DNA of 64,000 bases from Deltaproteobacteria bacterium. Its GTDB lineage: Bacteria > Lernaellota > Lernaellaia > JACKCT01. The translations under genes and the position numbers were made by a program. The notes under the pieces were generated by a model. The model saw only the letters and a list, made by a program, of their open reading frames with translations, searched no databases and had not been told where the DNA came from. Location of the stretch: the NCBI GenBank assembly GCA_027493875.1, contig JAOSJX010000006.1, forward strand, positions 45,248-109,247, in the 5' to 3' direction. Shown piece after piece: positions 8,519 through 60,107 of the stretch (position 1 is its first letter; every line of letters begins with the position of its first letter).

Positions 8519-10595
8519 CTATTCGGTCAGAAATTCAACGAGACCGAGGCGGAACAACGCGTAAATCAGGCCGAGGCAGCGGGCCTCGTCCATGGAACTC
8601 GCCGTCACGATTTCCTGAAGCGTTTTACGGCCGTTGAGTTGGCCGATGACGCGTGTCTCCTCGGGGTCCACGAGATTGCGCCGGGCCCGGTCCCGCATGG
8701 TGGCCGGCATGGTCACCAACGTGTTTCGATACGGCGCCAGTTCGTCCGCGACATGTTGAGGGTTGATCCGGGCACGCAGCGCCGACAGCAGGACGCGCAC
8801 GAGGTCCACGTTGAGCGGGATCGCCTGGCCCTGCCCGATCTTCTGCTCCTCGAATCGGACGTCCTGGCGCCCGGCCGAGGGCGGGGTTGTCAGCGACATG
8901 AGCCGGCTCTCGGCCTGCGCCATGAGCGCCTCCCCACAATTCGTGCGGCGTGACGAGGCCGCGGGCGAGCAGCACCTCACCGAGCGGACGGCCGGCGCTT
9001 TGCGCTTCGGTCAGGGCCGCATCCCGCGTTTCCTCGTCGAGTTGGCCGCGCTCCACGAGAAATTGCCCGAGCGAGTCGCGCGCCACCTTGTCGGTCGTGA
9101 TCTGCACGGGCTGCCCTTCTTTGAGGACGACGCGGTGCGTGGCGTCGGAAGTCTTCACCGTCACCACGCCGTCGGCGCGGATCGAGTTCAGGCGGTACAG
9201 TACGCGCAGCAGATCGCCGCCCTCCTCGTCCTCGCCGTCGCCGGACACCGCGCCGCGCAACACCGCGTCGGGGGTGCCCTCGCCGCGCTGACGCGCTTCG
9301 GCCAGCGCGCGCACCATCACGGGCTCCTCGAGTTGAAAGAACGACACGTCGCGGTCGCGGAACCGCACCAGCCCGAACAGAAAAAACAGATAGAGCACCT
9401 GAAACGTCCGCACGAACGACAGCGGGGCGCGGCTCATCACGTCGCCGAGCGTCCGTTCGCCATCCACGAGATCCAAAATCTCCCACTCGCCGCGCGTGAG
9501 CTGAAGCCCGGCGCGCCGCGCCTGGCGCACGTCGCCTTTGCGAATCGGGCGATGGCGGTTGGCGTAAATGCGCCCCTCGAGAATCGCGAGGGTGCAATAG
9601 TTCTTTACGCCCGCCAGGAGGATCTGAAGAATGCTTTCCTCGATGCGTCCCGAGTCGCCGAGCGGGACGTCGCCGGGCGAGAACCGGTAGTTGCCCTCGC
9701 GGTGCTCGAACGCACTCAGCAGCTTTCGCTGCGCCTGATAGTGAAGCGTGGAAAACAATTCGTAGCTGTCGAGCCAACCGTGCTCGACGAGTACTTCGCC
9801 CAGCCGCCGACCCGAGTCCACCGCTTCCGCCTGCGCTTCGTTCAGTTGCTGCGGCGTGATGCGTTCCTGCTCGACGAGAATCCGCCCCAGGGAATGGTTC
9901 GCGATGAAGTTGGTGTCGATCTCCTGCGGGATGCCGTTTTGAAACATGATTCGACGCTCTTCCTCGCGGCTCCACATCGACAGCACGCCCGTGGCGCGCC
10001 GTTGATAAAGCGATAGCATCAATTCCGGAAAAAGAATGTTTTCGAGCGTTCCCTCGACAGGCACCTCGGGAACCGGCGCGCTCAGTTCCTCTTCGTCGGT
10101 CATATCCCAGTCCGCCGGGCTGACGACCGTCGTCGCGGCGTGGGACGGCTCGTCGAACTCCTCATCGATCCGCGGTTCGTCCGGTTCGGGAGGCGGCGGC
10201 GTTTCGGTGATCGGCGGGGCTTTCCGGCCCGCGGAAACGGACAGCACAAACTCCGGTAATTTTTTGAAATCGAGCGGCAGGGCGAGGTATTCGTCGGCGA
10301 GAAAACGGCGCTTGACGTCCGCGGCGAAGGTCTCGCGGCGTTGGATCGCGCTGACCACGACCACCTTACACGATTGCGTTCCCGGCGCCTGCTTGATCTT
10401 CTTGCAGAGCTCGAGGCCGTTGCGGTCCGGCAACAGCGCGGCCAGAAGAATCACCTGCGGCAGGCGCATTTTTGCCGTCGAATCCTCGAGCGCAATCGTC
10501 AGATCGTGCCCGCGCTTGAACGTCTGCACCTCGAACCCCTCGGAAGCGAGCCGCCCGCGCACCATGTCCAGAAATCCCGCGTCGTGATCCGCCAC
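8519..10595 (-). CDS. multidomain signalling protein: degenerate receiver (REC) – PATAN/DUF4388 – MshEN/T2SSE_N-like (c-di-GMP-binding type) motifs x2 – second PATAN-like domain; one apparent frameshift
   Basis: REC-like VILLAALLPDRNGLELCKKIK with Ala at the phospho-acceptor position. DUF4388-like ILFPELMLSLYQRRATGVLSM. MshEN-like motifs RRLGEVLVEHGWLDSYELFSTLHYQ and RPLGEVLLARGLVTPHELW. The C-terminal DUF4388-type segment continues in ORF 8519..8980 after a g/c4 run at ~8932-8935. Confidence 0.65.
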
Positions 10596-10628
10596 GAAAA
10601 CGATTGTGCCCCCGGCCTTGTTCCTTGC

Positions 10629-12747
10629 TCATGGTTTCCTTCCAAACAGGGACCGAATGGGGTCCTTCGACTCTTGTTCGCGCTGCTTTTCGAGCGCCGA
10701 CGTCAGATAGTGCACTTGGCGGCGCGCCTCGTCGTTTTTCGGATCCTTCTCCATAATCGACTGATAGACCTTGATCGCCGCTTCGGTCTTTCCTTGGTGC
10801 CGGTACACCTCGCCGAGCCATTCGCGATACGTCACGTTGTCCTGATCCAAACGAATGGCCTTATTCAATTTGGCGACGGCGTCGTCCAACGAAAAACGCG
10901 GGTTCGCGATCAACCGGTAAATGCCGTAGCCGGCGCGGGCATGGTATTCGGCCACCGCGGGGTCGAGCGTGGCGGCGCGGTCGAAGGCGTCCGCGGCGGT
11001 CCCGAGTCGCTCCTTCTCCGTGGCGATCAATCCTTTTGGAAGACCGCCTCCGCGTCCATTTTTCGCTTGCGGGCCTGCGCGTCCGGATCGTTCGAATCGG
11101 GCGCCGGCGGGCCCCCGGCCTGACGTGTGTACCGGCGCCGCGTAAGCGGGTCGGAGAGCGTGTCCCACGCTTCGTCAATTTTGCGCACGATCGCCTGAGC
11201 GCGCCGGCGAACGCCCGGCGGCGCGCCGGCCGGCAGCGCGTCGGGCGCGAATTCCGCCTTCGCTTTCTGGTAGGCCTTTTCAATTTCCTTTTTGGTCGCA
11301 TCGGGCGCGACGCCGAGCAGTTCGTAGTAGGTCGTCTCGCCCAGCGACGCGGCAACGCGCTCGAGGTTTTCAAAGGCGCCCGTTTCGGGCGGCGCGTCGG
11401 ACGACGGCGGCGCCTCGGGCTTGACGGCCGGCACGCTCGCCCGTTCCTCGGCCGCCTCGGCCAGACGGCACAGACCGGCCGCGACCAAGCCGTAGATCAC
11501 GCGAACCGTATCCATCAGTCCCAGCGCCGACCGCGCGACGACGTCGCCGAACGCGTGGCGGCCGTCAAGCGACACCGCCAGTGTCTTTTCCTCGGGGGTC
11601 ATCTCCGGCGCCGGCAGCAACGGATTTTTACTCGGCACGGGATGAAGATTCTTATGCCGGACAAACGACGCGTCGATCAATTCGGCCCTGTAGTAACGGC
11701 GGTATCCTTCCATGATCGCGCGGTACAGACCGGCTTCAAAAGTTGGCGTATTCTCCGGATAACGCACGTCCGGGCTCAACCGGTACGTCCCTTCCTTCCA
11801 CGCGAACAGGCTCGCTATTTTCGTCGCCGTCTGCGCGCACAAATAGCGCGTCAGCTCGCCCGCCGGAACGATGCCGCGGCTGATGAGCAAGGTGCCGACC
11901 TTCTGGCCCGTTTCCGCGCTTTCCTCGATCACGGCGCGGTACTGTTCCTCCGTGATCCGCCCGGAGGTCATGAGCAGGCGGCCGAGCGCCTCCTCGCGAA
12001 TATTCGATTGCACGAAGACGGGCTGCCCCTCGATGAAATAGACCTGCTTACTCCCCGGCGCGCCGTCCGCGCGCAACGCCCCGGAAAACCGTTGCTCGGC
12101 CAACGCCAGAAACAGCCCTGCGAGACTGGCCGGGCGGAAAATACCTTCCTCCGCGGGCCGCACCGTGCGCATCGCGGGGCCGGGCCGGTCAGGATCGTCG
12201 TCCGCAACCGCGGCCGGCGGCGGAGACTCCGCCGGCGGTTCGGGTTTCGGGGGTTCTTCCTTGGACCGGTCCGGCCAAATCGATTCGACGCGTTTTTTTC
12301 GGGCGCGGGCGCGATCTTGGCCTCGGGGGCCGCCGCTTCCTCCACTGCCTCCGCGACGGCGGGATCGCCCGCGCCGATGAGATCGATCAGAATCCGCGAT
12401 AAATCCGTGGCGTCAAACGGCTTTTGGAGGAACGCGTCGGCTTTGTGCTTTGTCGTGGCGGCGGTCCGGATCGCGCGGCTTTGCTGGAGCTTGGACGTCA
12501 CGACCACTTTGGCCCAATCCGGCGCTTGTTCCTTGACCAGTTTGGCCACCGCGAGGCCGCCGATGCCCGGCAGCAGAATCTCGACCATGACCAGATCGTG
12601 GTGCTTTTCGCGAAACGCCGCGAGCGCCTCGTCCGCGGAGGCGGCGGTGTCCACGCTGTAACCCATCTGCCGCAACAGCACGCCGAGATCCCGGCGTTCG
12701 GCCTCGTCGACCTCGACCAACAAAATCGATTTGGGCGAGGAGGCCAC
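10629..12747 (-). CDS. multidomain signalling protein: atypical REC – PATAN/DUF4388 – MshEN-like – J-like domain lacking HPD – C-terminal TPR; two apparent homopolymer frameshifts
   Basis: The REC (MASSPKSILLVEVDEAERRDL…VMVEILLPGIGG, ORF 11968..12747) joins across a 7-nt t-run at 12292-12298 to the linker and DUF4388/MshEN/J-like part (TYYELLGVAPDATKKEIEKAYQKAKAEFAPD, ORF 11027..12172). This joins across an a/t4 run near 11033-11036 to a TPR tail (ORF 10629..11168). The GTG start at 12747 has a GGGAGGGGG SD and abuts the stop of the upstream gene at 12748. Confidence 0.6.
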
Positions 12748-15019
12748 CTAGCCCCCTCCCAGCTTCCTCAGAGCCAGCCGAGCTTCCTCGTTGTCGGGAT
12801 TGCAGTGGAGCGCCTGTTCCAGGTGTTTGCGCGCGGCCTCTTTTTTCGCCCAACTGCGACGCAATCATCCCCAGGAAGTAGTGCCCGGCGTCCATCGTGG
12901 GATTCATCGCCACGCCTTTGGCGATGGCCCTCCGCGCGCGTTCGACGCTCTCAGCGTCGCCGGGGTCCCGCCGGTAGACCGCCCAGCCGAGGTAACCGTG
13001 GTACTCGGCCTCGTTCGGCGCGGCGTCGAGCGCCCGGTCGAAACATTCGACCGCCCGGTTGAAATCCAGATCGCGCAGGGCGTCCTCGCCTTCCTGAAAC
13101 GCGAGCTCCGCCTTGAGAATTTCGGCGACGTTTTCCGTCGCCGCCGCGGACTCGGACAGGTCCACCGCGGCCTCGCCGTCGTCCGCGAAAAGATCGAGAT
13201 CCTCATCGCGGGTGTCGCCGGCCGGCGCGAACTCGGCTTCCGCCTCCCACAACGTGTCGAGGCCGTCGAGCTCGTCGGCCGACGACGCGGCGGGCTTACT
13301 TTCCACCGGCGCCGCCGTCTCCGCGGGCGCGTCCTCGGTGCTCAAAGCGAGGGGCGGGAGGTCCGCGTCCAGCGGCGGAAGATCGGGCTCCACCGCCGGG
13401 CCGCCCGGCGCCGCGGCGGCGGGCGGCGACGCCGCGCCCTTGGCCAGGCCCGCGTCGTAGGCGGCGCGCTCGGTGGGATTGACCAGCGCCGTGTACGCTT
13501 CCGTCAAACGCATAAAAATTTCGTCGGCTTTCTTGCGGGTGGTCTCGTCCGCCGCCGAATACAATTTGTGATCGTGAAAATGTTTGGACAGCGCGAAATA
13601 GGACGCCTTGACGCGGTCCACCGGCGCGCTCGGCGCAATGGACAGGATTTCGTAAAAGTTCAACCGGTCGATGCGCGCATGCGCGCGGTTCACCTCGGCC
13701 CGGAAAGAGATGCGCGGGTCACCGGTCTTCGCGATTTTGTCCGTCCGCATGCCGCCCAACCCGGAGAGCGGCGTCGCGGCTTGCGCGTGGGCCGCCGCGC
13801 CGACACCCGGCGCGTGATCCTCGCCGCGGAAGCGGAGGGTTTCGAGCACGAGCAGAAGAAAGAGCGTCTGAAACGTTTCCGTGAGCGACAGGTTCGACCG
13901 CGCCACGATCTGGCCGACCGTCCGCCGTCCGTTGATGAGCGTGACGAACTTCATCGTCTGCGGCCCGAAACCGATTTTGTCGTCGCGGACGAAAGGTTCG
14001 TTCACGCGGACGACGCGCCGGTTCTTGTATTCGTTGAAAAACCCTTCCAGCCGCGACAGCGTGTAAAAACGTTTGATGCCTTCGTAAAGGATTTGAATGG
14101 GATCCACGTTGATCGTGAAATCCTGATTGATCTCGAAGCGCCCGGGACGGAAGCGGTAGCGCCCCCGGTCCCACGAAAAAACGGTGAGCACCTTTTCCAT
14201 CACGTGATCGTAGAGACCCTTGTACAAACCGTGCGGCGTAATGGCTTCCATTTCCAGGAGCACCTGGCCGTGCTGTTTGCCGGTCTCCAGCATCCGTTCG
14301 AGGGAGGCGTTGTACTGCGCGGTGGTAATGTCCCGCCGCTGCACGAGAAAACGCCCCAGGCTTTCCGTCGCCTGGTTGCTCGTCACCAGCACCGGCAGGC
14401 CCGACTGAAGATAAACGACCTTGCTGACGCGTTCCCGCTCCAGGCGCAGCGCGCCGGTCCGTGCGTACTTGTGCAGATAGAATAGGAGCTTCGGAAAGGC
14501 GATATCGCCGAGGTCGCCTTCGAGCCCGACCTTTTTCTGCGCGTCGATGGCCGGGTCCGGTTCGGGCTCGGCTTCGACCGCCACGGCGGCCGGCGCCGCT
14601 TCGCCGAAATCCTCCGCAACGGCGGTTTCCTCCTCCGGATATCGGCCGTCGCCGAGGAGTTCGTTAATGAGCCGTTCGAGCTCGCCCACGTTCACCGGCT
14701 TTTCCGTGTAGGCGTCCACACCCACCTGACGCCGGGCCTCGTATTGTTCGCGGAATTGCCCGTACACGGTGGACATCAAGATGATCTTGACGTCCCGGCC
14801 CTCGCGCATGGACTTCACTTCCTGCGTCACCTTGAGGCCGGTCATGCCCGGCAGGAGCGCGTCGAGGATCATGAGGTCGGGCGTGACGTCCGGAAATTGG
14901 GTCACCACGTCGCGGCCGTTCTTGAGCCAGGTCACCTGAAAGCCTTTCGCCGAGAGAAGGTCGTTGAGCACCTCGAACTCGGCGTAATTGCTTTCTCCGA
15001 CCAGAACGCGTTTGGACAT
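12748..15019 (-). CDS. multidomain signalling protein: REC – PATAN/DUF4388 – MshEN-like – J-like domain (HPD replaced) – acidic linker – TPR; one apparent frameshift
   Basis: ATG at 15019 with AGGA upstream. REC MSKRVLVGESNYAEFEVL…LMILDALLPGMTGL. DUF4388 FPKLLFYLHKYARTGALRLE. J-like NFYEILSIAPSAPVDRVKASYFALSKHFHDHK. TPR EYHGYLGWAVYRR…AGHYFLGMIASQLGEK. It then continues in the neighbouring frame (EAARKHLEQALHCNPDNEEARLALRKLGGG*) after the t6 run at 12841-12846. It is listed by the ORF track as part of one 1231-aa ORF 12413..16108. Confidence 0.65.
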
Positions 15020-15029
15020 GGCGAAAATC

Positions 15030-15985
15030 CTACTCGATTTCTCCGCACGCTTCCACGAGCGCGGCGGCCAGAAGCGGAAACAGAATCTCGTGATGGCCCG
15101 TGATGTGAATGCCGCGTCCCCCGGCCGCGTCGGCCGGTGGACGACATTGGTCAGGGGCCGGTAGTGCCGCAGAAAATCCAGGTTGACCGTCGTGATCGGC
15201 GAGAGCTTCCGGCCCGCGTTGCGCGACGCGGAAACCGCCTTCAAAAACACTTCGGGCAAAAGAACGGCGGAGCCAAGGTTGATGTAGACCCCGCCATCCA
15301 GATCCGACACGAGCGTGACGAACCGCGCGAAGTCGCGGCCGGCCAGCGCTCCGAGTGCGGCGAAATCCAGTTCCGCGGCGAGGTGCGTGACGTCGGTGCC
15401 GATCGCCACGTGCGCGGTGGCCGGCGTTTCCGTCTCTTCACAAAAAGCCAAAAGACTGTGTTCGCGGTATGGCGCGTCCAGCGACGCGATGCCGCGGCCC
15501 ACCGCCTCGGCCAGGCCCAAACCGGCCTCCGCGCCCTCTTTGACGAAACGCGCCAGATCGCGGCCCGTTTCGTGCGTGACGCCGAAGGAACCGTCCGCGA
15601 GCGCGGCTTCCACGTCCTCGCTCGTTTTGCCGGCGACCGCGCTTTCGTAATCGTGCACGAGCACGGCGCCGTTCACCGCCACCGCCGTGAGAATTTTCCG
15701 GCGGATGAGGTCGATAATCAGCGGCGAGAGGCCGACTTTGACCGGGTGCGCGCCCATCCCGAGAATCACCGGCCGCCCGCGTTTGCGCGCCTCGCACACC
15801 GCCGCGACGACGGCGCGCAGATCGCGCGCGGCCAGATGGTCCGGCAGCGCGTTGAGAAACTCGGCGAAGGTCGCGCCCTCGCGGTGCGGCTGGCCGAGTT
15901 GTTCGAGTTCCACCAGGCTCGGCCGCGTGTCGAGGCTCTGCCGCGTGAGGCGGGAGAAATCGAAGGGCGGGACGCGGTTGCTCAT
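15030..15985 (-). CDS. deoxyhypusine-synthase-like (DHS-like NAD-binding fold) protein, family assignment tentative; apparent frameshift at c5 run 15118-15122
   Basis: Start [10 protein letters not shown] at 15985 overlaps the upstream stop as ATGA. The C-terminal [30 protein letters not shown] (other frame, stop 15030-15032) resembles the GGGIIKHHI…VFPLL C-terminal region of deoxyhypusine synthases. Confidence 0.4.
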
Positions 15986-16584
15986 GCGCCGTCCTTCCCG
16001 CCGAACATCGTCTGTTCGACCAGACCGCACAGCAAATGCCCGATCGTGATGTGCACCTGCTGAATGATCGGGGTGTCCGGGCTTCGGACGATCAGAAGAT
16101 GATCGCACACGTCGCCCATGCGTCCGCCGTCGCGGCCGGCGAGACCAATGGTGACGGCGCGACGCGACCGGGCCGCGGCGAGGCCGGCGAGGACGTTGGC
16201 GCTTGTTCCCGACGTCGAAATCCCGACCACGGCGTCCCCTTCGCGCACGAGCGCCTCGACCTGCCGCTCGAAAATCTTATCGAACCCGAAATCGTTGCCG
16301 ATCGCGGTCAGCGCGGAGGTATCGGTCGTCAGCGCCACCGCCGCGAGCGCGGGCCGGTTGATGAGATAGCGGCCGGAGAGTTCCGCGGCGAGATGCTGGG
16401 CGTCGGCGGCGCTGCCGCCGTTGCCGAAGAAAACGACTTTGCCGCCGCCGCGCAGCCGCCGCAGCGAGCCGTTCCGCCACGCCGGCCACGCTATCCGCGG
16501 ACTCGCGAAAAAAGCTTCTAGCGCCTCGGCGCTGGCGCGAGCGTATCGCGCGATCTCGCGCGACGCGATGTCGGCCCCGCTCAC
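15982..16584 (-). CDS. SIS-domain protein, phosphoheptose isomerase GmhA / DiaA-like
   Basis: [26 protein letters not shown], the [11 protein letters not shown] motif and a typical ~200 aa length. Confidence 0.8.
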
Positions 16585-26939: not shown

Positions 26940-27046
26940 GACGTGTTGACTTTGAAAAGATACCCCCCTTTCAAATATGTCAATGATTTTTTTCTTGCAA
27001 AAGCCTCCGCCGCCCGTATTCTTCGCGGTGCATTGGAGAGGGGACT

Positions 27047-27682
27047 TTGGACCAACGGCTCGTCATCGGCACTTACGATCTCGACGAGGATCTGATCGCG
27101 CGCGTGCGGACGACGCGCGAACCGGCGCAGCGCGTCGCGGCGGTGGCGTCGCGCATGGTCGTGCTCGGGCGCGGAAGCAAGCCGGAGATGGAACTGCGCG
27201 TCGACAACTGCCTTGCCGACGGCGTTCCGGTTCTCCGCCGCGGCGGCGGATGCGCGGTCTTCCTCGACGAGGGCAATATCGTCGTGTCCGTCGTTCTCCC
27301 GGTCACAGGCATCGCGGGAAACGACCGCTACTTTTGCGACATCACGAAATGGCTGACGGCGGGACTATCGGAGATCGGCGTCCCCGGCGTCCGCCCGGCG
27401 GGCGTCTCCGACCTCGCCCTCGGCGACCGCAAGGTCGGCGGCGCGTGCATCCACCGCTCGAAGGACGTTTTGTATTACTCGACGACGCTGCTTATCTCGC
27501 CCGACGTGGACGCGATGGAACGCTACCTCGCGCAGCCGCCCAAGGAGCCCGACTACCGCCGCGGACGCGCGCATCGCGAATTCGTCGGCCGACTATCTCT
27601 TCCGCGTTCGATGGAAAATACCGAGGGACTTGCCGAGGCGTTACGCGCGGCGCTCAAATTTCCGATCGCATTCGGGAGCTAA
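27047..27682 (+). CDS. biotin/lipoate A/B protein ligase family protein (LplA/LipB-like catalytic domain)
   Basis: BPL/LPL catalytic-domain-like sequence VLGRGSKPEMELRVDNCLADGVPVLRRGGGCAVFLDEGNIVVSVVL. Convergent with the giant gene, with a 4-nt end overlap. Confidence 0.6.
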   Translation: MDQRLVIGTYDLDEDLIARVRTTREPAQRVAAVASRMVVLGRGSKPEMELRVDNCLADGVPVLRRGGGCAVFLDEGNIVVSVVLPVTGIAGNDRYFCDITKWLTAGLSEIGVPGVRPAGVSDLALGDRKVGGACIHRSKDVLYYSTTLLISPDVDAMERYLAQPPKEPDYRRGRAHREFVGRLSLPRSMENTEGLAEALRAALKFPIAFGS

Positions 27683-30600
27683 CACCCGCAACAACCCGCG
27701 TCGCCGTCATCGTCGTCGTCATCGCCGTCCTCTTCCCACGGGTCGCGGTGGCGGTCCGGCTCTTCGTCGTCGTCAGGTTCCGCGGCGGAGGCGGCGACCC
27801 ACTCGTCTTCCTCGTTCTGGCCGAATTCGGGAAGATCCCAATCGTCGTCCCATTTATCAAAGGTATCGTCGTCCCCGCCGGCGGTGTCGTCGTCATCGTC
27901 ATCGCCGAGGATCTGGTCGCACGTATCCTGAAGGTCGTTGCATTCCGTTCCGGGGTCGCAAGGGTCGCCGCCCGAAACGCAGGCCGCCTGACCCTCGACG
28001 CAAAACTCCGGTCCGTTGCAAAACACGCCGTCGTCCGCGCACGGGTTGCCCGATTGCAGGCAGCTTTGCGTTCCCTCGTCGCAACTCTCGACGCCGTTGC
28101 AGAACACCCCGTCGTCCGCGCACGGCACGTCCAACGGCACGCATTCGTTCTGCGTCTCGTCGCAGCTTTCCTCACCGTTGCAGAACAAGCCGTCGTCCGG
28201 ACACGGATCGCCCGACGAAACGCACATCTGCGCGTCCTCGTCGCAAGACTCGTCCCCATTGCAAAACACGCCGTCGTCGCCGCACGGATCGCCGGTGGAC
28301 AAACACGCGTCCCCGCCTTCGTCGCAGAACTCGTCGCCGTTGCAGAACACGCCGTCGTCCTCGCACGGATCGCCGGACGAAACGCACTCGCGCCCGCCCT
28401 CGTCGCACGATTCGACGCCGTTGCAAAACGCTCCGTCGTCGAAGCAGGGATCGCCGGTGGAAACGCACCCGTCGATATTGTCGTCGCAAATTTCGTCGCC
28501 GTTGCAGAACAGCCCGTCGTCGCTGCACGGATTCCCGGTGTGATCGCAAACGTCCTGCGCTTCGTTGCACGATTCGCCGCCGTTGCAGAACAGTCCGTCG
28601 TCGCCGCACGGCGGGCCGACGTGAAGGCACGCGTCCAGATTGTCGTCGCACGTCTCGCCGCCGTTGCAGAACAATCCGTCGTCCACGCACGGATTGCCCG
28701 ACGATTCGCAGGCGCTCTGCGCCTCGTTGCACGATTCGGTGCCGTTGCAAAACGCGCCGTCGTCGCCGCACGGATCGCCCGAATGCACGCACTGGTCGAT
28801 CTGGTCGTTGCAGATTTCGTTGCCGTTGCAAAACACGCCGTCGTCCAGGCAGGGGTTTCCGGCGTGCGTGCAAACGTTGCCCGCTTCGTCGCAGGTTTCC
28901 ACGCCGTTGCAGAACGCGCCGTCGTCGGGGCACGGATTGCCCGCGGAGGAGCATTGATCCAGCGTATCGTCGCAAAGCTCCGGCCCGTTGCAGAACACGC
29001 CGTCGTCGGCGCACGGATCTCCCGTCGTCACGCATTGGTCCGTGGTTTCGTTGCACGATTCCGCGCCGTTGCAGAAAAGTCCGTCGTCCGGGCACGGATC
29101 GCCCGCGTGCATGGAGCACGCCCCCGCCTGGCAGGCGTCGTCGCCGTTGCAGAAAACGCCGTCATCGCACGAGGCGCCGTTGTTGTCGGACCACGCCTGA
29201 TCGTCGATCCCCGGGTCGCAGAACAGGCAGCCGTTCACCGGGTTGGGATCGCCGTTGGCGTAACACACGCCGCCGATGAAACATCCGCCGGGGCACGCGG
29301 TGCGGATGTGCACGCCGGAAGGCTGCTCGGGCAGGCCGCCCACGTACCACGGCGACCCGGTCGCGTACGGCGTGGTGGCCGGCGAATACAGAAGCCGCGC
29401 CCGCCATCGCCACGTTCCCGGCCCGGGCTGCTGCGCCGTCGCCGTCATGGTGCCGGTGGTGCCGGCCGCGCCGCTGTCCGACCACGCCGCGAGCACGCCG
29501 TGATCCCACTCGTCGAACGCCTCGTCGAACGGCGCGACTTCCCACTCGATCCCGACCTTGCCGCGCCCGAACGGCGTTTTCTTGGGCGCCTTGATGCGGA
29601 ACGCGTCCGGCGACTCGGACGACGTGTACGGGCTCACGCGGCGGTCCACGTCGAGGCGGATCGGCACCGCGCGCCGCGTCAGGCCGCCTTCGTTGCCGTA
29701 GTAGATAAGCACGCGGCCCTCGTCCGTCTGGTCGTTGTTGAAATGCGGCGCGCCGACGATGACGTCGTCGAAGCCGTCGCTGTTCACGTCCGCCGCCGCG
29801 ACGCTCGCGCCGAGGTTCATATCCTGCTGCCCGCCCGAAACGGTCCACGCCGCGGCCGCGCTCGGCGCGGTCGCCGTGCCGAGATAGAGAAACGCCTGGC
29901 CTTCGTAGGTCAGCGTATTCGTGCGCAGATTGGCGCCGACGACCATATCGGCGTACCCGTCGCCGTTCACGTCGCCCGCCGTTCCGACACTGACGCCGTA
30001 GTTGCACAGATTCTGATTGCCTTCGCCCGTCCACGCCGCCGCGCTCTGCGGGCCGGACACGGTGCCGTAGTACAGCCGCGCGACGCCTTCCTTGAATTGG
30101 TCGCCGTTATACCGCGGCGCGCCGACGATGATGTCCGCGAAGCCGTCGCCGTTCACGTCACCCGCCGTCGCCACGGACGTACCGAAACGCGCGTCGGCGT
30201 TGTCGCTCTCTTTGCTCCACGCGGGCGCCGCGAGCGGGCCGGCCGACGTGCCGAGATAGACATGCGCGATGCCTTCATTGGTTTGCCCGTTCGTATAGTC
30301 CGGTGCGCCGACGATGATGTCGCTGAACCCGTCGCCGTTGACGTCGCCCGCGCCGCCGACCGACCAGCCGTACGCCGCGCCGACGGAATTGCCCTGGCCG
30401 GTCCACACCGGCGCGGCGGTGAGCCCCGTCGCCATCCCGAGATAAACAAACGCGGCGCCCTCGCCGTCTTCCCCCGCGTCATAGCCGTAGGCCCCGACGA
30501 TCACGTCGGTGTGGCCGTCGCCGTTGATGTCCCCGGCGCCCGCGACGCTGTACCCGAACCACGCGTTGTCCTGGTTCGACTCCGCCGTCCACGCCGCCGT

Positions 30601-33065
30601 CGTCTTCAGGCCCGTCGACGAACCGCGGTAGAGAAACGCGCGGCCCTCGTTGTTTTGGCCGGAATCGTAGAAGTTGGCGCCGAGGATGACGTCGTCGTAG
30701 CCGTCCGCATCCACGTCGCCCGCGCCGGCCACGCTGACGCCGAAGGCCGCGTTCGGCTGATTCGCCTCCGCGCTCCACACCGGCGACGCGATCGGCCCGT
30801 TGGGGCCGCCGTGAAACGCGAACGCGCGGCCCTCGTTGACTTCATCGGCATCGAAACCGCGCGCGCCCACGATGATGTCGGCGTAGCCGTCCCCCGTTGA
30901 CGTCGCCAGCGTTCGCCACGACGAGTCCGAATTCGGAGCCGCTCTGATTGCTTTCGATCACCGTCCCCGCCGCGGCCGCCAAGCCGCGGCCCGCGCCGTG
31001 GTACACGAAAGCGCGGCCCTCGTCGGCGAAGGAGCCGTCGTAGTCCGGAGCGCCCACCGCGATGTCGGCGAAGCCGTCGCCGTTCACGTCACCCGCGGCC
31101 ATCACGCTCATCCCGAAGTGCGCGTTGTTCTGGCCGCCGGTGCCGGACCACACGGGCGTCGTGGACGGGCCGGGTTTTCCGCCGAGATAAAGACGCGCCG
31201 ACCCCTCCGCGGACGTTCCGCCGAACGGCGCGCCGACCAGAAAGTCCGCGTAACCGTCGCCGTTCACGTCACCGGCCGGCGCGACGCTCGTGCCGAAGGC
31301 CACGCCCGCGAGATCGCTCTCGACGTTCCACCACGCCGTGGCGGACACGCCGAACGCCGATCCGAAAAACACCGCCGCGCGGCCTTCGCCCGCCTGCCCA
31401 TTCGAATAGCCGGGCGCGCCGGCGATCAGATCCGCGTAGCCGTCGCCGTTCGTATCCCCGGCCCCCGCGATGCCCGCGCCGAAAAATTCGCCCGTGAGCG
31501 TGCCGTCCTTGATCCACGAGGACGACCCGGAAAGTCCGGAGCTCGAACCGTGGTAAACGTACGCGCGTCCCGAATCCTGCACCGACAAATCAAAGCCGGG
31601 CGCGCCGACGGCCACGTCGCCGTAGCCGTCGCCGTTCACGTCACCCGCGGCGTCGAGCGCGTAGCCGAACATGGCGCCGGTCTGCGTGCCCTGGACGGCC
31701 CACGACGGCGAGGCCGCCGGCCCCGCGGAGCTTCCGTAGAACGCGTGCGCGAGGCCGCGGTCGGCCGACGCCCCATCGTAAAGCTCCGCGCCGACGAGCA
31801 CGTCCGCGTACCCGTCGCCGTTCACGTCTCCGGCCGACGCCACGGCCTGCCCATACGCCGAGTCCGGCTGGCCGCTCGCGTAGAACCAGAGGGGCGAGGC
31901 GCCGAGGCCGCCGGCCGACCCCGCGAAGACGTACGCGGCGCCTTCCGCCGTTTGCGTATCGGAGGCGCCCGGCGCGCCGACGATCAGATCGCCGAAATCG
32001 TCGCCGTTGACGTCGCCCGCCGCGGACACCGCCGCGGCGAACGCCATGTCCTGTTGGTCGCCCCGGGCCTCCCAGTCGGCGGTCACCGACAGCCCGGCGG
32101 CGCTTCCGTGAAAAACGAAAACCGCGCCCTCGCCGCCGAGACCGTTGTCGAAACCGGGCGCGCCGACGGCGAGATCGGCGAAGCCGTCGCCGTTCACGTC
32201 GCCCGCGGTCGACACCGAGGCGCCGAGACCCGCCGAGGCCGACGGCCCCGACGCCTGCCACGACGCCGGCGATGAAATCACCGGGTCGATGGTGACCGGA
32301 TAAATCGCGCCGTCATCCTGCACGACGATTCGCAACGAACCGTCCCATTCGAGACGCGCCGGCAGCGGCCGGCCGCCCGCGTCCCACGCGAAAGCGCCGC
32401 CGACGCGTAGCACCGCGCGCGCGGCATCGAAGAATTCCACGGCGCCGCCGCCGGCATCCTCCACGCCGTCGAGATCTCCCGCCGCCAGCACCTCGACCGT
32501 CAGCGGACCGATTCCGCCGGGCGCGGCCGGAACGACGTAGCCGAACTCGATCCCCTCGGGCCCGTTGTCGAACCATTCCGTGACGCCGCCGCGGGCGATT
32601 TCGACAACGCGCGGACAATCCTCGGCCATCCGAACCATGGCCGAGCAGCCGCCGAACGCGGGCGCCCCGGAGGGCAGGCCGGCGCGCGATCCGTCCCGTC
32701 CCACCGACACCGGCCGCAACATCATGCGCCAATCGCCGCGGCCCTCGCGGTCTTCAAGCTCGAGCGTCCCGTCCACCAACGCGCCGCGCAGGCTCCTGCG
32801 CCCGGTTGACGATGGAAAAACCTCCATCCCCGTCCGGACGGATGCGGTACTCCTCGGCCCGGATATAATCCAGGGCTTGTTCGGCCCACGACGCCACCGT
32901 CGGCCCGTCCGCGGCGTCGAATCCCGCGGCGGATTCCTCCGCCGCGGCCGAATCGGTGTCGGTAGGCCCGCCGTCGTCCGCGTTTTCGCACGCGACGAAC
33001 GGATAAACGGCCGCCGACAACAAAACGGCGATCGCCACAAGGCTGATATTTCGGTAAAAACGCAT
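27679..33065 (-). CDS. giant (~1800 aa) secreted lipoprotein: >14 FG-GAP (integrin-alpha beta-propeller) repeats, ~20 Myxococcus cysteine-rich repeats, acidic tail ending …DDDDDDGDAGCCGC*; at least two apparent frameshifts
   Basis: N-terminus with lipobox LLSAAVYPFVAC (ORF 32754..33065). FG-GAP units AGDVNGDGxADxxVGAP recur through ORF 30842..33040 and 27679..30870, joined at a c5 run ~30892-30896 (…AGDVNGDGYADIIVGARGFD). ~20 repeats of CxDDGxFCNGxExC(D/N). Tail DDDDDDTAGGDDDTFDKWDDDWD…EEDGDDDDDDGDAGCCGC*. Confidence 0.7.
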
Positions 33066-34329: not shown

Positions 34330-34992
34330 TCACCCTTCATAAATAATCGTCAGAACGATGTTTTCGAGCGTGTTGCTCACGTTCCCCGTAGCGTCCGTCG
34401 CCTCGATGTCGATCGCCGTTCGATACTCGCCGGGACCGTGGTCAAACGAGGACTCGGGGATCAGGACGCCGATCGCAACCTCCAAAGGCGTGTCGCAGTT
34501 TGCCGCATCCTCTTTCCCCGTGTTCAGAGTGCTCCATGGGAAGGGCTGCGTTGTGAAGTAAGGGTCCGCCGTGCCGGCGATATAAAACCACACGCCGCCC
34601 GGATCCGCCAGATCGCCGTCCGAATCGCAAACCGAGAAAACGATCTCCGTGCAGGCCGTGTCGCCGGTCGGAGGATTTTCACAGTAGGGGCCCCACGCAA
34701 TATTCGGCGGATTCCAGTAGCCGCTTGAGAGAACAGGTGTTCCGAACGGGATGCCGTCGTCATCAACACCGTCGTCGCCGCCCACGGCGTCGTCGTCAGT
34801 CACGTCGATGTCGTCCGGCGGCGTGTCGTCCGAAGATTCGCCGACATCGTCATCGTCGCCGCCGCCGCACGCCGTCACGCTGAACAGCGCGAAGACGTAC
34901 ACGATCGGAATCGCCGCGGCGAGCCACCGTATTGTTCCGCATCTCTGACGCATGATCCGCTCCTTCCTCGGTCTCGTCGTGGAGCCCCTCAA
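34330..34992 (-). CDS. lipoprotein with poly-Asp linker and conserved unknown ~140-aa C-terminal domain (paralog family member 1)
   Basis: Lipobox SVTAC, then GGGDDDDVGESSDDTPPDDIDVTDDD, then a domain alignable to the two downstream paralogs (…NGFW/YWNP…C…DPGG.WFY.AGT.D…NCD.PLE…GNVSN.L.N). Confidence 0.6.
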   Translation of the reverse strand: MRGSTTRPRKERIMRQRCGTIRWLAAAIPIVYVFALFSVTACGGGDDDDVGESSDDTPPDDIDVTDDDAVGGDDGVDDDGIPFGTPVLSSGYWNPPNIAWGPYCENPPTGDTACTEIVFSVCDSDGDLADPGGVWFYIAGTADPYFTTQPFPWSTLNTGKEDAANCDTPLEVAIGVLIPESSFDHGPGEYRTAIDIEATDATGNVSNTLENIVLTIIYEG

Positions 34993-35882: not shown

Positions 35883-36497
35883 TTAGCCGTTGTACGTGAC
35901 GGTCAACGTCAGGTTCGTCAGCTTGTTGCTCACGTTGCCCGCCGCGTCGGTCCCCTCGATGTCGGCCGCGAGCGTGTAGTCGCCGGCGCCGGAGCCGAAG
36001 CCGTCTTCGCCGATGAGCAGGCCGATGCCCGTCTCAAGCGGCGCGTCGCAGTTGGTCACGTCCATCGCGTCGGGGTTCAGGTCGCCCCAGGTGATCGGCT
36101 GCTCGACGAAGAACTGGTCCGTCGTGCCGGCCGCGTAGAACCACGCGCCGCCCGGATCGGTCAGGTCGCCGTCGGGATCGCAAACCGAGAACAGGATCGC
36201 CGTGCAACCCGTGGTCTCGCAATCGGCCGACCAGGTGAACGACGCCGGATCCCAGAAGCCGTTCGACAGCACCGGGGCGTCGCCCGTGGCGGCGTCGTCG
36301 TCATCCGCGTCGTCATCCGTCGCGTCGTCGTCGGCGTCGTCATCGCTGAAATCGTCGTCGCCGAAATCGTCGTCATCGTCGTCGTCATCGTCGTCATCGT
36401 CATCGTCGTCGCCGCACGCCGCGACCGCGCCGATGGTGAAGACCATGGCCAGAATCATGGCCACCAGAAGCACGTGCTTTTCGAAAAAGGCTTTCAT
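35883..36497 (-). CDS. lipoprotein with very long poly-Asp linker and conserved unknown C-terminal domain (paralog 3, ~85% identical to paralog 2)
   Basis: MKAFFEKHVLLVAMILAMVFTIGAVAAC, then GD(24)…, then the same domain. Confidence 0.65.
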   Translation of the reverse strand: MKAFFEKHVLLVAMILAMVFTIGAVAACGDDDDDDDDDDDDDDDFGDDDFSDDDADDDATDDDADDDDAATGDAPVLSNGFWDPASFTWSADCETTGCTAILFSVCDPDGDLTDPGGAWFYAAGTTDQFFVEQPITWGDLNPDAMDVTNCDAPLETGIGLLIGEDGFGSGAGDYTLAADIEGTDAAGNVSNKLTNLTLTVTYNG

Positions 36498-41953: not shown

Positions 41954-42559
41954 TCAAGCGCTGTCGTCGTCCCCGGTGTCGTCATCGGCCGTGTCGTCGT
42001 CGGCCGTATCGTCGTCGGCGTCGTCGTCCGCGAAATCGTCGTCGCCGTCATCGTCAACCGCGTCGTCGTCCACGGCATCGTCGTCGGCCGCGTCATCGTC
42101 CGCGCACGCGAATTGCTCGACGTGGATGACGTCCGTGTCGAAGCCCTTAATGCATCCGCTGTCGTGAAAGGCCACCACCTGGAAGTAAAGATTGCACAGG
42201 CAGTCGTCGCACACTTCGTCGCCGCGGAACCGGCGGATGAATCGGCGGGCGTCGGCCTCGCTGCGGACCAGATCGAACTTCACGCCGTTGGGCCGGCCCT
42301 CGGACGTTCGCGCTTCGGCGGTGATGCGGTCGATGTCCTGATTTTCGCTGTCGCCGGTGAGAATCAGGAGAATTTCGAATTCCGTGTCCGATGTCCCGGA
42401 GGCCGGATAAATCTGCGTGTCCTGAAACTTCGGACATTCCTCGGGGTTGTCGTCGCTCTTGCCGCACGCGGAAACGGCCAGCCCGAGAGCCGCAAAAAGT
42501 AAGACGAGCGCGCGTCGTTTCAAGTTTCCCTCCCGCTGAAAGCGGGGCAAGTGTGCCAA
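41954..42559 (-). CDS. lipoprotein with a C-terminal poly-Asp tail (…DDDTADDDTGDDDSA*), no terminal Cys motif
   Basis: LVLLFAALGLAVSAC lipobox; ~80-aa Asp-rich C-terminus. Confidence 0.55.
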   Translation of the reverse strand: MAHLPRFQREGNLKRRALVLLFAALGLAVSACGKSDDNPEECPKFQDTQIYPASGTSDTEFEILLILTGDSENQDIDRITAEARTSEGRPNGVKFDLVRSEADARRFIRRFRGDEVCDDCLCNLYFQVVAFHDSGCIKGFDTDVIHVEQFACADDDAADDDAVDDDAVDDDGDDDFADDDADDDTADDDTADDDTGDDDSA

Positions 42560-42671
42560 CGCCCCGGAGCCCCGTCAAGGATCGACGCCGACGTTTCTCG
42601 GCGAAGAAATTGATTGACCACGGTTCGGGGTGGGCGCACAATCTTCATGACGGCGTGGAATCGAGGGTAGC

Positions 42672-45543: not shown

Positions 45544-45642
45544 TTTCCGCGGAACGCGTAAAAACGTCGGATTCGATGGTTTTTGCCGCGCATTGTGATA
45601 AAGTGCGCCGTTTTTTTGGACCCTGTTCCTGAGGGAGTCTTC

Positions 45643-47682
45643 ATGCGCCGAATGATTTTGACGATCCTGATCGCCTGCGTCGCCGTGGCCGGTTTTGTCC
45701 CCGCCGCGAGCGCCGACGAAGCGATTCAACTCAAAACGCGATCCTTCACGCCGCCGGCCTCCGCCGACGTCGCCGCGGATATCGCCAAGCTGGTGGGCCG
45801 GCACGGCGTCATTCAAATGAACGAAACGCCGGATGCCGGAAAGCGCGCCGCGCTCGCGGAAAAAGGCGTTCACTTGCTCAAGGCTCTGCCCGGCCGCGCC
45901 TACCTCGCCTTCATCGAGGAAGGCGCGCGCGTCGAGAAAAGCACCGCCGCGGCCTTTCGTTGGGCCGGCGAATTGAACCGCGCGGACAAAACGCACCCCC
46001 TGCTCGCGCAAGGCAAGTTTGTCATCGATCCCGAAGACGACGCGGGGCGCCGCGTGATGGATATTCTGATGTTCCCCGACGTGACCGAGGAAACCGGCCG
46101 CCGTATCCTCGAAAACGCCGGCTCCGAAATTCTCGGTCGCATCGCCACCGTCAACGGATTCACCGCCGCCCTCAATCCCTCCGCCGTGCCCGCGCTCGCG
46201 GAGGAAGACGCGGTGCTGTGGATCGCGGAGACGGAACCGGCCTATGAACCCTTCTTGGACGTCGGCAAGCCGGCCGTCGGCGGCGACGAGGCCAATGCGG
46301 CGCCTTACTTCACCACCGGCAAGGACGTCGGCGTTCTCGTGCTCGACGGCGGCACCGTCTTCGGCCACAAGGATCTCGAAGGCCGCCTGACACAGATCGA
46401 CGTGCCCATCCCCGACTTTTCCGGCCACGCGCACCACGTGTCGTGCATCGTCGCGGGGGACGGCACCATGTCCGGCGGGCAATACACCGGCATGGCGCCG
46501 GACGCGTCCATCGTGTCCGCCTCCACCACCGGGCTCGGCATCCCGCCGCTCTACAGCAACGCCGGCAACATGGAGCGCGTCTACGAAAACGCGATTCAAA
46601 ACCACAACGCCACCGTGTCCAACAACTCGATCGGCGCCAACCTCGCGCGTCTCGGGGCGAGCGCGTGCGTTTACGAGGGGGACTATTCCGTCACCGCGCA
46701 GGTGGTCGACACCATCGTCGGCGAGGAGTACGGCCGTATCCACATCGTCTGGTCCGCCGGCAACGAGCGCGGCTACGTCACGTGCGGCACGGCGTACAAC
46801 ACCAGCGCCCCGCCGGCCACGGCCAAAAACTCCATCGGCGTCGGCGCGCTCAACAAGGAAGACCTGTCGATGACGTCGTTTTCAAGCTGGGGCCCGACGG
46901 ACGACGGACGCATCCGCCCCGACGTCAGCGCGCCGGGTTGCGATCACGATTTCAACGGCATTCGCAGTTGCTGGTTGGCCGACCGTTACACGGACTTCTG
47001 CGGAACCAGTCAATCCGGACCCATCGTCGCCGGGTCGGTCGCGCTCGCGCAGGAATACTGGCGGCGCACGGTCCGCGAGGAAGACGCCTGGGCCTCCACG
47101 ATGAAGGCCCTTGTCATTCATAGCGCCATCGACCAGGGCGAACCGGGCCCGAACTACCGCGACGGCTTCGGCGCGCTCGACGTGCCGTCGCTGCTCGATC
47201 ACATCGACGGCGCCATGATCCTCGAAGAAGAACTGGATCAGGGCGACGCGTTCACGCTCGATCTTTATCCGTTCACGAACGACGTGAAGGTCACGCTCGT
47301 GTGGACCGATCCCGCCGCCACGGCGCTCGCCGCCACCGCGCTGATCAACGACCTGGATCTTTCCGTCATCACCGGCGACGGCACGGAGTTGCCTTGGATT
47401 CTCAATCCCTCCTCCCCCGCCACGCCCGCGACGAAGGGAGAAAACCACCGCGACCCGGTCGAGCAGGTGCAGTTTGATTCCTCGGGCGTGGACGGACCCG
47501 TTTCGGTCGTGGTCGAGGGAGCGAACGTTCCCGAGGGCCCGCAGCGGTTCTCCCTCGTCATCACCGGTCTTCAGGAGGAGGCTCCGGACGGCGGCGCGGA
47601 GGATGACGATGCGGATGATGATGCGACGGATGATGATGCGGGGGACGACGATGACGACGACGGCGGCGGATGCGGTTGCTGA
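45643..47682 (+). CDS. secreted subtilisin-like serine protease (peptidase S8) with C-terminal Asp-rich tail ending …DDDDDDGGGCGC*
   Basis: Signal MRRMILTILIACVAVAGFVPAASA; catalytic D (VLVLDGG), H (HGTHVSCIVAG) and S (GTSQSGPIVAG). Confidence 0.85.
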   Translation: MRRMILTILIACVAVAGFVPAASADEAIQLKTRSFTPPASADVAADIAKLVGRHGVIQMNETPDAGKRAALAEKGVHLLKALPGRAYLAFIEEGARVEKSTAAAFRWAGELNRADKTHPLLAQGKFVIDPEDDAGRRVMDILMFPDVTEETGRRILENAGSEILGRIATVNGFTAALNPSAVPALAEEDAVLWIAETEPAYEPFLDVGKPAVGGDEANAAPYFTTGKDVGVLVLDGGTVFGHKDLEGRLTQIDVPIPDFSGHAHHVSCIVAGDGTMSGGQYTGMAPDASIVSASTTGLGIPPLYSNAGNMERVYENAIQNHNATVSNNSIGANLARLGASACVYEGDYSVTAQVVDTIVGEEYGRIHIVWSAGNERGYVTCGTAYNTSAPPATAKNSIGVGALNKEDLSMTSFSSWGPTDDGRIRPDVSAPGCDHDFNGIRSCWLADRYTDFCGTSQSGPIVAGSVALAQEYWRRTVREEDAWASTMKALVIHSAIDQGEPGPNYRDGFGALDVPSLLDHIDGAMILEEELDQGDAFTLDLYPFTNDVKVTLVWTDPAATALAATALINDLDLSVITGDGTELPWILNPSSPATPATKGENHRDPVEQVQFDSSGVDGPVSVVVEGANVPEGPQRFSLVITGLQEEAPDGGAEDDDADDDATDDDAGDDDDDDGGGCGC

Positions 47683-53221: not shown

Positions 53222-53929
53222 CTACATGAAATATGATCTACCGACAAGGCCGGCGGGCAACGGGGGATCGGAGATTAACCGTCGTTCTCGCCGGGTCTCG
53301 TCGCGAGCCCCGCCGAGACGGGACGGCGGAGACGCCCCCGGCTCCTCATCCATGCGTTCGATTTTTGCGAGCCAGGCGCGGGCGCCGCTGTCGTATAAGA
53401 CGTTATCGAACAAGGCGGTTTCGATTGAATGGACGCGCCATCCCTTTTGAAACGTGCCCTTGATCTCGGTTTGCGTGACGCGACGCGGTCCGTCGGGCCG
53501 GGTTTCGTGCTCGGAAAAGCAGAGAAGGAAATAACTCCCGCCCGGTTCGAGTTTTTCGGCCAACATTTTTTCGAACAGCGGCCTTTCCTCGTCACTGAAC
53601 ACGTGGAACAACCCACTGTCGATAACCGTTTGGAACCGGGCACCGTCAAGGTCCGGCGACAACGCGTCGGTGTTGAGGAACCGGACGCTGATTCCTTTAT
53701 TTTCGGCTTTGGCGCGGGCACGCTCGATGGCCGTGGGCGCGGCGTCGATGGCGGTCACGTCAAATCCACGGCGCGCGAGTTCGATGGCGTTGTCGCCCGT
53801 GCCGCAGCCGACATCCAGGACGGTCCCGACGATCTCGCCGTCATCCGCCAGACGCACGAAAACCGGCTGCGGGCGGCCGATATCCCACGGCACCGGTCCG
53901 GCGCGGTAAAACTCTTCAAATCGGGTCAC
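53222..53929 (-). CDS. class I SAM-dependent methyltransferase
   Basis: VLDVGCGTGDNAIELARRG glycine-rich SAM motif; acidic post-I motif DVTAID. Confidence 0.7.
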   Translation of the reverse strand: MTRFEEFYRAGPVPWDIGRPQPVFVRLADDGEIVGTVLDVGCGTGDNAIELARRGFDVTAIDAAPTAIERARAKAENKGISVRFLNTDALSPDLDGARFQTVIDSGLFHVFSDEERPLFEKMLAEKLEPGGSYFLLCFSEHETRPDGPRRVTQTEIKGTFQKGWRVHSIETALFDNVLYDSGARAWLAKIERMDEEPGASPPSRLGGARDETRRERRLISDPPLPAGLVGRSYFM

Positions 53930-60035: not shown

Positions 60036-60043
60036 TCGCGACG

Positions 60044-60077: not shown

Positions 60078-60107
60078 CCGCGGTGCGGCGACGATCGGGG
60101 AGATTTC

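Follow-up and report, generated by a model that had tools for sequence, protein, structure and literature searches.

A Poly-Aspartate, Cysteine-Ended C-Terminal Tag in Candidatus Lernaellota-Like Bacteria That Looks Like MYXO-CTERM Minus the Membrane Helix and Arginine Cluster

To our knowledge, the described prokaryotic C-terminal sorting signals of the class that includes MYXO-CTERM are all tripartite, consisting of a motif, a transmembrane (TM) helix and a basic cluster, and all require a dedicated endopeptidase, be it a sortase, an exosortase, an archaeosortase, a rhombosortase or a myxosortase. The MYXO-CTERM signature is built around an invariant Cys, often set in GCGC, and its model places a lipid on the Cys before a CPBP-family myxosortase cleaves distal to the last Cys (Haft, 2023). 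MrtX-dependent cleavage has been shown in a study that draws the same model, with the Lgt-like acyltransferase unidentified and a disordered region adjoining the motif (Guo, Haft and Wall, 2025; PMC11980579). Because cleavage in the model falls distal to the last Cys, a mature MYXO-CTERM protein would end in ...GCGC-COOH. Here, we describe proteins whose genes encode an end of this kind directly, starting from a 64,000-nucleotide window of contig JAOSJX010000006.1 (assembly GCA_027493875.1), in which a giant minus-strand FG-GAP/Cys-repeat protein (the flagged protein) and a plus-strand S8 subtilase both finish in a two-part tag: a presumably disordered poly-Asp tract followed by Gly-Cys(-Gly-Cys) at the protein end.

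Translation of 27679-30960 on the minus strand yields FG-GAP repeats, then a long Cys-rich repeat region and then a strongly acidic tail (...PWEEDGDDDDDDGDAGCCGC, followed by the stop), and the C-terminal residues of the flagged protein, ...EEDGDDDDDDGDAGCCGC, form an Asp-rich, Cys-ending tail that is read in a single uninterrupted frame. The terminal Gly-Cys-Cys-Gly-Cys is encoded by GGT TGT TGC GGG TGT (27682-27696, minus strand), and the TAG stop (27679-27681, minus strand) comes directly after the last Cys; the resulting CCGC is a variant of the family consensus GCGC. The acidic linker preceding this motif (GDDDDDDTAGGDDDTFDKWDDDWDLPEFGQNEEDEW...EEDGDDDDDDGDA; 27697-27903, minus strand) is probably disordered, and the final 110 residues of the protein contain 45 Asp or Glu and 3 Lys or Arg. 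This linker can be aligned with the corresponding acidic stretch of P0135 (56% identity, 88% coverage, intact signal peptide), which is the flagged protein's best ortholog and whose C-terminus, ...DRDGEKDGNCCGC (NCCGC), is likewise aligned with the flagged tail; the uncommon CCGC form is thus conserved between the two. The stop also lies within a 4-nucleotide CTAA overlap with a convergent plus-strand LplA/B-family (lipoate/octanoyl ligase-like) gene (27047-27682, stop TAA at 27680-27682; Pfam LplA-B_cat E=1.3e-25; NCBIfam lipoyltrans E=2.4e-16, under that model's cut-off), in agreement with the initial annotation of a convergent 4-nucleotide overlap with a BPL/LPL-family gene, and no functional link between the two genes is evident. 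A long plus-strand open reading frame (ORF) lying over the flagged gene (26977-30900) is an Arg/Ala-rich shadow frame.

The same annotation had described the Asp-rich, Cys-ending C-terminus as recurring, and the terminus indeed recurs in the window, in homologues and in numerous other carriers. The other window copy, the S8 subtilase (45640-47682, plus strand; signal peptide MRRMILTILIACVAVAGFVPAASA; 100% identical to P0001, MCZ7583411.1), ends in DDDDDDGGGCGC before a TGA stop; its acidic tail starts at 47575, and its longer C-terminal stretch, which came up when every ORF of the window was screened for a Cys-rich end, reads ...DDDADDDATDDDAGDDDDDDGGGCGC. The dual-tail DNA pattern GACGAYGAYN{0,21}TGYGGNTGYTRR matched both window copies (4 overlapping matches) and gave no match in 100 dinucleotide-preserving shuffles of the window. 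An S8 set found by homology, and hence without pattern bias, was drawn from NCBI, ENA, JGI and Logan assemblies and comprises the window copy and 13 homologues (P0002-P0014, 41-52% identity); all 14 end in poly-Asp and a Cys ending, which is GCGC in 11/14, GCGS in 2/14 and GGCCG in 1/14, and the sequence of the acidic tract is variable. Two further S8 homologues (P0039 and P0087, 35-36% identity) possess a TM-less Cys tail in which the linker, acidic or rich in Gly, is followed by GCGGC and two more residues (...DDDASGIVGAGCGGCGL and ...AGGAGGGGAGCGGCWI, respectively). Because the antisense of GAC/GAT repeats is stop-free, a convergent ORF for a PTPS_related/GT-C-like membrane protein (47561-49411, minus strand) runs antisense through the S8 poly-Asp codons (47561-47682) and thereby has an R/H/P-rich end (...RRRRRHRRPPHHHPSHHH...), which is probably run-on; this convergent pair is present on L231, the contig of P0003 (11949-12073), and absent from L230, the contig of P0005.

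To gauge the spread of the tag, one genome per GTDB species was scanned for four Asp codons, a gap of at most 15 nucleotides, GCGC and a stop, which returned at least 109 matching stretches. At least 94 in-frame ORF ends of the form (DDDx)n-DDDDDD-GCGC-stop were found at 87 loci, all from nine metagenome-assembled genomes (MAGs), with at least 25 tails in DAIMDW01, 23 in DAIPLW01, 14 in CAZEDX01, 13 in DAINPV01, 6 in JACKCT01, 5 in CAZPJD01, 4 in CAXXWT01 and 2 each in CAYSHR01 and CAZQAE01, all lower bounds. The loci of other taxa, 22 among the matches listed, consisted of TGG ends or ORFs of 6-16 codons and had no ORF-terminal acidic tail, and a looser pattern applied to metagenome contigs yielded 33 further tails, including a GCCGC form (locus L227). 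Cys occupies position -1 in 133 and position -3 in all of 136 tails, although the last-position frequencies are inflated by ascertainment, as the DNA pattern demanded D...GCGC; the homology-derived set agrees. Nearly every tail Cys in this pattern-selected sample has Gly before it, and at least one Gly-Cys is kept in every tail. Other endings in the carrier loci include NGCA, SGCA, GGCA, GCGR and ACGC, the constant element being Gly-Cys within the last four residues.

All three stops terminate the 94 tails (TGA 59, TAA 23, TAG 12), both Gly positions use GGG, GGC, GGT and GGA, Cys uses TGC and TGT, and the G+C content of the carrier MAG loci ranges from 44% to 65%; the mixture of stops and synonymous codons across this range therefore indicates selection at the protein level, with no recoding. 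It is highly improbable, and largely refuted, that the tag is an artefact or neutral low complexity arising from MYXO-CTERM genes cut short, errors of assembly or annotation, stop recoding or functionless GAC/GAT microsatellite expansions. Several frameshifts in the window assembly and the nature of poly-Asp tracts as length-variable low-complexity DNA would fit such an origin; nevertheless, the same ending occurs in independent NCBI, ENA, JGI and Logan assemblies with all three stops and mixed synonymous codons, no TM helix is encoded beyond the stops of either window copy in the read-through frames, and no Cys + TM + Arg tails occur in 671 kb of loci from the same MAGs, a small and biased sample. 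Two specific mechanisms were considered and ruled out: a recoded stop or read-through, because three stop codons are used, no TM helix lies downstream and a convergent gene (flagged copy) or ORF (S8 copy) is overlapped, and a DNA-level repeat or cassette, because of the mixed synonymous codons and the G+C span of the loci.

Among the carriers, JACKCT01 corresponds to HK-STAS-FEN-2 of p__FEN-1099 (supplement, PMC8518188), a phylum that has been named Candidatus Lernaellota (PMC9324843). The Lgt encoded in the window (57716-58537) shares 59% identity with its counterpart on JACKCT010000002 (P0248) and has approximately 14 relatives at 52-68% identity, as opposed to 35-38% for the two Myxococcota-named matches listed; on account of these identities, the window, labelled 'Deltaproteobacteria bacterium' at NCBI, is assigned to a FEN-1099-like organism. 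The tag thus appears, from its distribution among genomes, to be lineage-wide in FEN-1099/Candidatus Lernaellota-like bacteria and not an isolated oddity. Full-text searches covering the motif, poly-Asp tails and FEN-1099/Lernaellota turned up no description of a poly-Asp + GCGC tag, which is apparently undescribed; relative to the initial annotation, what is new here is the tie to the MYXO-CTERM GCGC signature and the phylum-wide scale of the tag.

The flagged gene itself was annotated initially as encoding a giant FG-GAP/Cys-repeat protein, and this description holds once its pieces are joined. Its 1063-residue ORF (27679-30870, minus strand), which is the only piece covered by the NCBI annotation (P0121, MCZ7583393.1, 100% identical), contains 72 Cys and comprises FG-GAP (integrin-alpha-like beta-propeller) repeats at 29460-30870 (Pfam FG-GAP E=1.3e-50, 6 stretches) and 15 tandem Cys-rich repeats of 27 residues at 27916-29166 (minus strand; DDGxFCNGxExCDExxxxCxxxGxPCx, 4 Cys each; regex count, period 27). 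The latter are predicted to form a disulfide-rich stalk, and no Pfam or NCBIfam model matched them. The ORF is without a signal peptide and its start falls inside an FG-GAP repeat. At a first frameshift site (AACGGGGGACGGCTACGCC; 30880-30898, minus strand), one extra G in a G-run separates AGDVNG from DGYADIIVGA; when one G is removed from AACGGGGGACGGC at this site, three-frame translation shows ORF 30842-33040 (minus strand), which holds upstream FG-GAP repeats of the same gene at 30842-32800 (Pfam FG-GAP E=1.6e-59, 7 stretches), reading on into ORF 27679-30870. The true N-terminal piece (32754-33065, minus strand; signal peptide MRFYRNISLVAIAVLLSAAVYPFVAC, lipobox-like FVAC) is in the third frame and is cut off by a second frameshift near 32800, and the intended product across both frameshifts would be approximately 1800 residues long. 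The original remark that no frameshift is involved is therefore right for the tail, which lies in one frame, and wrong for the gene, which has two frameshifts upstream. Among other window genes, FtsY (51977-53179) has lost all but the first 31 residues of its GTPase domain, and a UbiA prenyltransferase ORF (55813-57054) carries, fused to it in frame, the C-terminal end of IspH (LytB). Since these genes also look split or fused by single-base indels, which suggests that the assembly is prone to them, the frameshifts in the flagged gene are plausibly assembly indels, a real pseudogene being the alternative. Just upstream of the FG-GAP gene region lie two paralogous minus-strand ORFs of approximately 200-220 residues (34330-34992 and 35883-36497), without a Pfam match and with similar C-termini (...TDATGNVSNTLENIVLTIIYEG and ...TDAAGNVSNKLTNLTLTVTYNG).

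Tagged proteins mostly have predicted signal peptides and carry surface-type domains. A classical N-terminal Sec signal peptide was recognized in 60/63 complete carriers by a hydrophobicity and charge heuristic (not SignalP), mostly with AxA-type and in a few cases with lipobox-like cleavage sites, and signal peptides are also present on the S8 copy and on the reconstructed N-terminus of the flagged copy. Pfam domains among 65 tagged proteins include PKD (10), Kelch-type propellers (7), Peptidase_S8 (6), M14 carboxypeptidase (5), C25 gingipain-like peptidase (4), BNR/sortilin (4) and purple acid phosphatase (3), among others; this cargo is typical of the surface or secreted proteins that bear C-terminal sorting tags in other phyla. 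Outer-membrane protein (OMP) beta-barrel matches and the Lgt gene within the window indicate a diderm envelope in the source organism. One might suppose that the acidic-Cys tail serves only in outer-membrane translocation, being recognized by a type II secretion system (T2SS)-like or other exporter that lets folded cargo leave the periplasm, with no covalent anchoring. We judge this quite improbable: we know of no linear C-terminal signal in T2SS substrates, no secretion genes lie near the tagged genes, and, given how strictly Cys stands at the free C-terminus, thiol or carboxylate chemistry seems likelier than mere recognition. The points that speak for it are the restriction of the tag to signal-peptide proteins with extracellular-type cargo and the T2SS dependence of MYXO-CTERM and GlyGly-CTERM cargo (PMC11980579).

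Set beside MYXO-CTERM (TIGR03901), the tag occupies the same place, namely the extreme C-terminus of Sec-exported surface proteins, dozens per genome, and it shares a preceding disordered region, overlapping cargo types and a Cys signature motif (GCGC in 11/14 of the S8 set; CCGC in the flagged copy and P0135). Unlike MYXO-CTERM, the tag is devoid of a TM helix and an Arg-rich cluster and meets its stop straight after Cys, leaving nothing for a CPBP protease to cleave; its upstream linker is extreme poly-Asp, and its host is FEN-1099-like, whereas MYXO-CTERM belongs to Myxococcota (Myxococcia, Polyangia; Bradymonadales). NCBIfam and Pfam contain no model for the tail, whether whole proteins (E<=0.01) or isolated tails (E<=10) are searched, and TIGR03901 gave no match at either threshold; the tail of the S8 copy produced a non-significant alignment with MXAN_6652_fam (E=0.74; positions 161-180 of the 203-position profile, close to the C-terminal end of the latter). 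As two of the three defining parts, the hidden Markov model match and the taxon all differ, the tag is not a member of MYXO-CTERM, and on sequence grounds it is better said to look like MYXO-CTERM minus the membrane helix and the arginine cluster. Likewise, other CPBP-protease-paired signals are short, C-terminal, marked by an invariant Cys and found on exported proteins; these are tripartite (motif, TM helix, Arg cluster), and the present tag corresponds to the motif part only.

Homologues of the flagged protein place recognized sorting signals where the tag stands. FG-GAP homologues in other phyla (P0210, P0131, P0224, P0225 and P0233) have ends composed of a Cys motif, a TM helix and a basic cluster at the tag position; P0210, for instance, ends in ...GDGGDGGGCDCGAAGRAS-TM-RPFGRPR (GGGCDCGAAG motif), and P0225 bears the JGI name 'MYXO-CTERM domain-containing protein'. 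Other FG-GAP homologues end in the C-terminal domain (CTD) of the type IX secretion system (T9SS), PF18962. The T9SS CTD, GlyGly-CTERM and PEP-CTERM take the same position on FG-GAP, S8 and C25 cargo and, like the tag, mark many proteins per genome, but there is no sequence or architectural similarity, the first being a folded beta-sandwich of approximately 80 residues and the other two tripartite with a TM helix; PF18962/TIGR04183 matched neither window copy nor any of the 65 tagged proteins.

The two parts of the tag appear to be distinct in role. Asp accounts for approximately 50% of the last 56 residues and Lys + Arg for 0.9% of those in the last 60 positions; the acidic part has a median length of approximately 49 residues and is often DDDx-periodic. 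A window lipoprotein (41954-42574, minus strand; lipobox AVSAC) has a (DDDx)n tail that ends in DDDSA without Cys, and in L021 a (DDDx)n tract directly follows an N-terminal signal peptide. Because the tract thus occurs without Cys and after signal peptides, it is considered a separable linker module, and Gly-Cys is taken to be the functional motif at the end. Poly-Asp classically binds Ca2+ and minerals, and the tail could instead be a cation, metal or mineral module, wherein poly-Asp binds Ca2+/Mg2+ and bridges to lipopolysaccharide, exopolymer or mineral, the thiols bind soft metals, and exoenzymes are held non-covalently near the cell or on particles. The disproportion between Asp and basic residues and the Cys-independent role implied by these two occurrences agree with such a module, which nevertheless leaves unexplained why homologues at 41-52% identity, whose acidic tracts drift freely, all have their stop exactly behind Gly-Cys(-Gly-Cys), and why homologues elsewhere carry membrane-anchoring sorting signals at the tag position; we regard it as rather unlikely.

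Our best reading, by analogy, is that the tag would be equivalent in function to the end that processing leaves on proteins with Cys-containing tripartite signals, MYXO-CTERM among them. More specifically, and with slightly less than even confidence, we propose a lineage-wide, cleavage-independent sorting or anchoring tag whose terminal thiols would be covalently modified, most likely S-lipidated, for retention at the surface. Once the protein has passed through Sec and lost its N-terminal signal peptide, its terminal Cys thiol(s) would receive the modification and the hydrolase or adhesin would stay at the cell surface, with the acidic tract acting as a spacer and possibly, as in the Bacteroidota lipoprotein export signal (LES), as a determinant of surface export. 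As the gene encodes the ...GCGC-COOH end directly, no TM helix, Arg cluster or cleavage would be needed.

Rab proteins with -CXC or -CC ends offer a eukaryotic parallel, being doubly lipidated (geranylgeranyl) without proteolysis. In both the Rab-CXC/CAAX proteins and the tag, Cys lies at or beside the free C-terminus, and in both comparisons the -CXC end needs no proteolysis, whereas the longer CAAX or MYXO-CTERM form needs a protease; CAAX processing by an Rce1-family protease has itself been related to the MYXO-CTERM case (Haft, 2023; PMC11980579). The relation of MYXO-CTERM to CAAX may therefore parallel that of GCGC-COOH to Rab-CXC, an analogy that is suggestive, not evidential. Eukaryotic prenylation differs in that it is cytosolic and uses soluble prenyltransferases, while the tagged proteins are Sec-exported with extracellular-type domains, and no prenyltransferase homologue was identified for the tag. 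It is conceivable, although we think it doubtful, that the tag belongs to a new anchoring system, a bacterial extracytoplasmic counterpart of Rab-type -CXC lipidation, in which a periplasmic enzyme would add a lipid or envelope moiety to the free ...Gly-Cys-Gly-Cys-COOH on its poly-anionic leash without proteolysis.

Bacterial lipoproteins provide the other point of comparison. The tag resembles the Lgt/Lsp lipobox in having Gly before Cys, and Lgt is encoded in the window; it differs from the lipobox ([LVI][ASTVI][GAS]C with an N-terminal h-region) in being C-terminal and without an h-region or L-x-x, such that only Gly at -1 is common. In the Bacteroidota LES, K-(D/E)2, acidic residues beside the lipidated N-terminal Cys promote surface exposure (Lauber, 2016; PMC5080379). 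The tag likewise has acidic residues beside Cys, in numbers (tens of Asp) well beyond the 2-4 acidic residues of the LES.

Several points weigh against Cys-based anchoring, in addition to the ascertainment that inflates the last-position frequencies. Lipidation, or any other modification of the Cys, is something we infer wholly; without a TM helix, nothing obvious keeps the tail within reach of an Lgt-like enzyme at the inner membrane; anionic membranes should repel a poly-anionic tract that adjoins the Cys, barring bridging by divalent cations; and the L-x-x lipobox context is missing upstream of Gly-Cys. No dedicated enzyme gene recurs beside tagged genes in the 671 kb of lineage loci or in the window, and, for the flagged copy in particular, expression may fail if its two frameshifts are real. 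The absence of a lipid-transfer context (TM helix, lipobox) would suit a disulfide hook, in which the terminal CXC stays unlipidated and forms a strained intramolecular disulfide, or a mixed one with another tagged protein or a Cys-bearing partner in the envelope or S-layer, so that the cargo is covalently yet reversibly tethered to the surface with poly-Asp as the spacer. Peptides with CGC mimic protein disulfide isomerase in their redox activity, nearly all tails have two Cys spaced as CXC at the extreme end, and heavily disulfide-bonded cargo modules, exemplified by the 72 Cys of the flagged ORF, imply an oxidising export compartment where free thiols would react. We nonetheless consider such a hook unlikely: the single-Cys variants NGCA, SGCA, GGCA and GCGS are tolerated, so two Cys in CXC are not strictly required; no partner candidate emerged; and extracellular disulfides are less stable in anoxic water, where described members of the phylum are most abundant (Williams, 2022).

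Gene neighbourhoods were surveyed by all-vs-all clustering of 498 ORFs (the 87 loci and the window), which recovered syntenic orthologs and one repeated B12-radical-SAM family (7 members, 5 loci) and, among these ORFs, no tag-specific neighbour cluster. Within the window, no operon link connects the tagged genes to their neighbours (OMP barrels, a GDSL-like hydrolase, an ABC transporter, an M10-like peptidase and the LplA/B-like gene), no PF02517 (CPBP) protein was found among the annotated ORFs, and Rfam gave no matches. The Lgt gene, the UbiA-family prenyltransferase ORF and a TPMT-like S-adenosylmethionine methyltransferase gene (53222-53929) all lie on the minus strand within 5 kb of each other; enzymes of these classes could in principle act on Cys thiols, and nothing ties them to the tag. 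A three-gene plus-strand cluster at 59667-61758, resembling those for peptides that are made on the ribosome and modified after translation, encodes a small Sec precursor (MKKSSLILGLGSAAFLLGTPIAHA) with EGSCGG/EGKCGEGSCGG repeats and a (DK)n tract, an MNIO enzyme (60108-60959; PF05114 MbnB/TglH/ChrH, E=1.5e-86) and a DUF2063 protein (60946-61758), and is reminiscent of bufferin/methanobactin-like Cys-modifying systems. This MNIO cluster (59.7-61.8 kb) was set aside as a modifier of GCGC tails, having its own adjacent signal-peptide precursor with EGKCG-type repeats. Elsewhere in the window, three adjacent paralogous genes (8625-16108, minus strand; 656, 381 and 1231 residues) combine DUF4388 with response-regulator and/or DnaJ domains.

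Although the Cys motif is all that the tag retains of the tripartite signals, dozens of secreted hydrolases and adhesins in each genome bear it across a candidate phylum. If it anchors proteins, then the TM helix and the cleavage step would be dispensable for Cys-based surface display, and the tag would provide a clean natural substrate with which to approach the enzyme that modifies the MYXO-CTERM Cys, separating modification from cleavage; the identity of that enzyme is an open question, for which Lgt is the leading candidate (PMC11980579). Anchoring would also furnish a simple sequence rule for predicting from metagenomes the proteins that Lernaellota-like bacteria, whose inferred lifestyle is saccharolytic and proteolytic, display in their surface exoproteome, and a short, protease-free poly-Asp + GCGC tag might serve for surface display. 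Even as a cation-binding leash or a disulfide hook, the tail would represent an undescribed, lineage-wide feature of an uncultured phylum.

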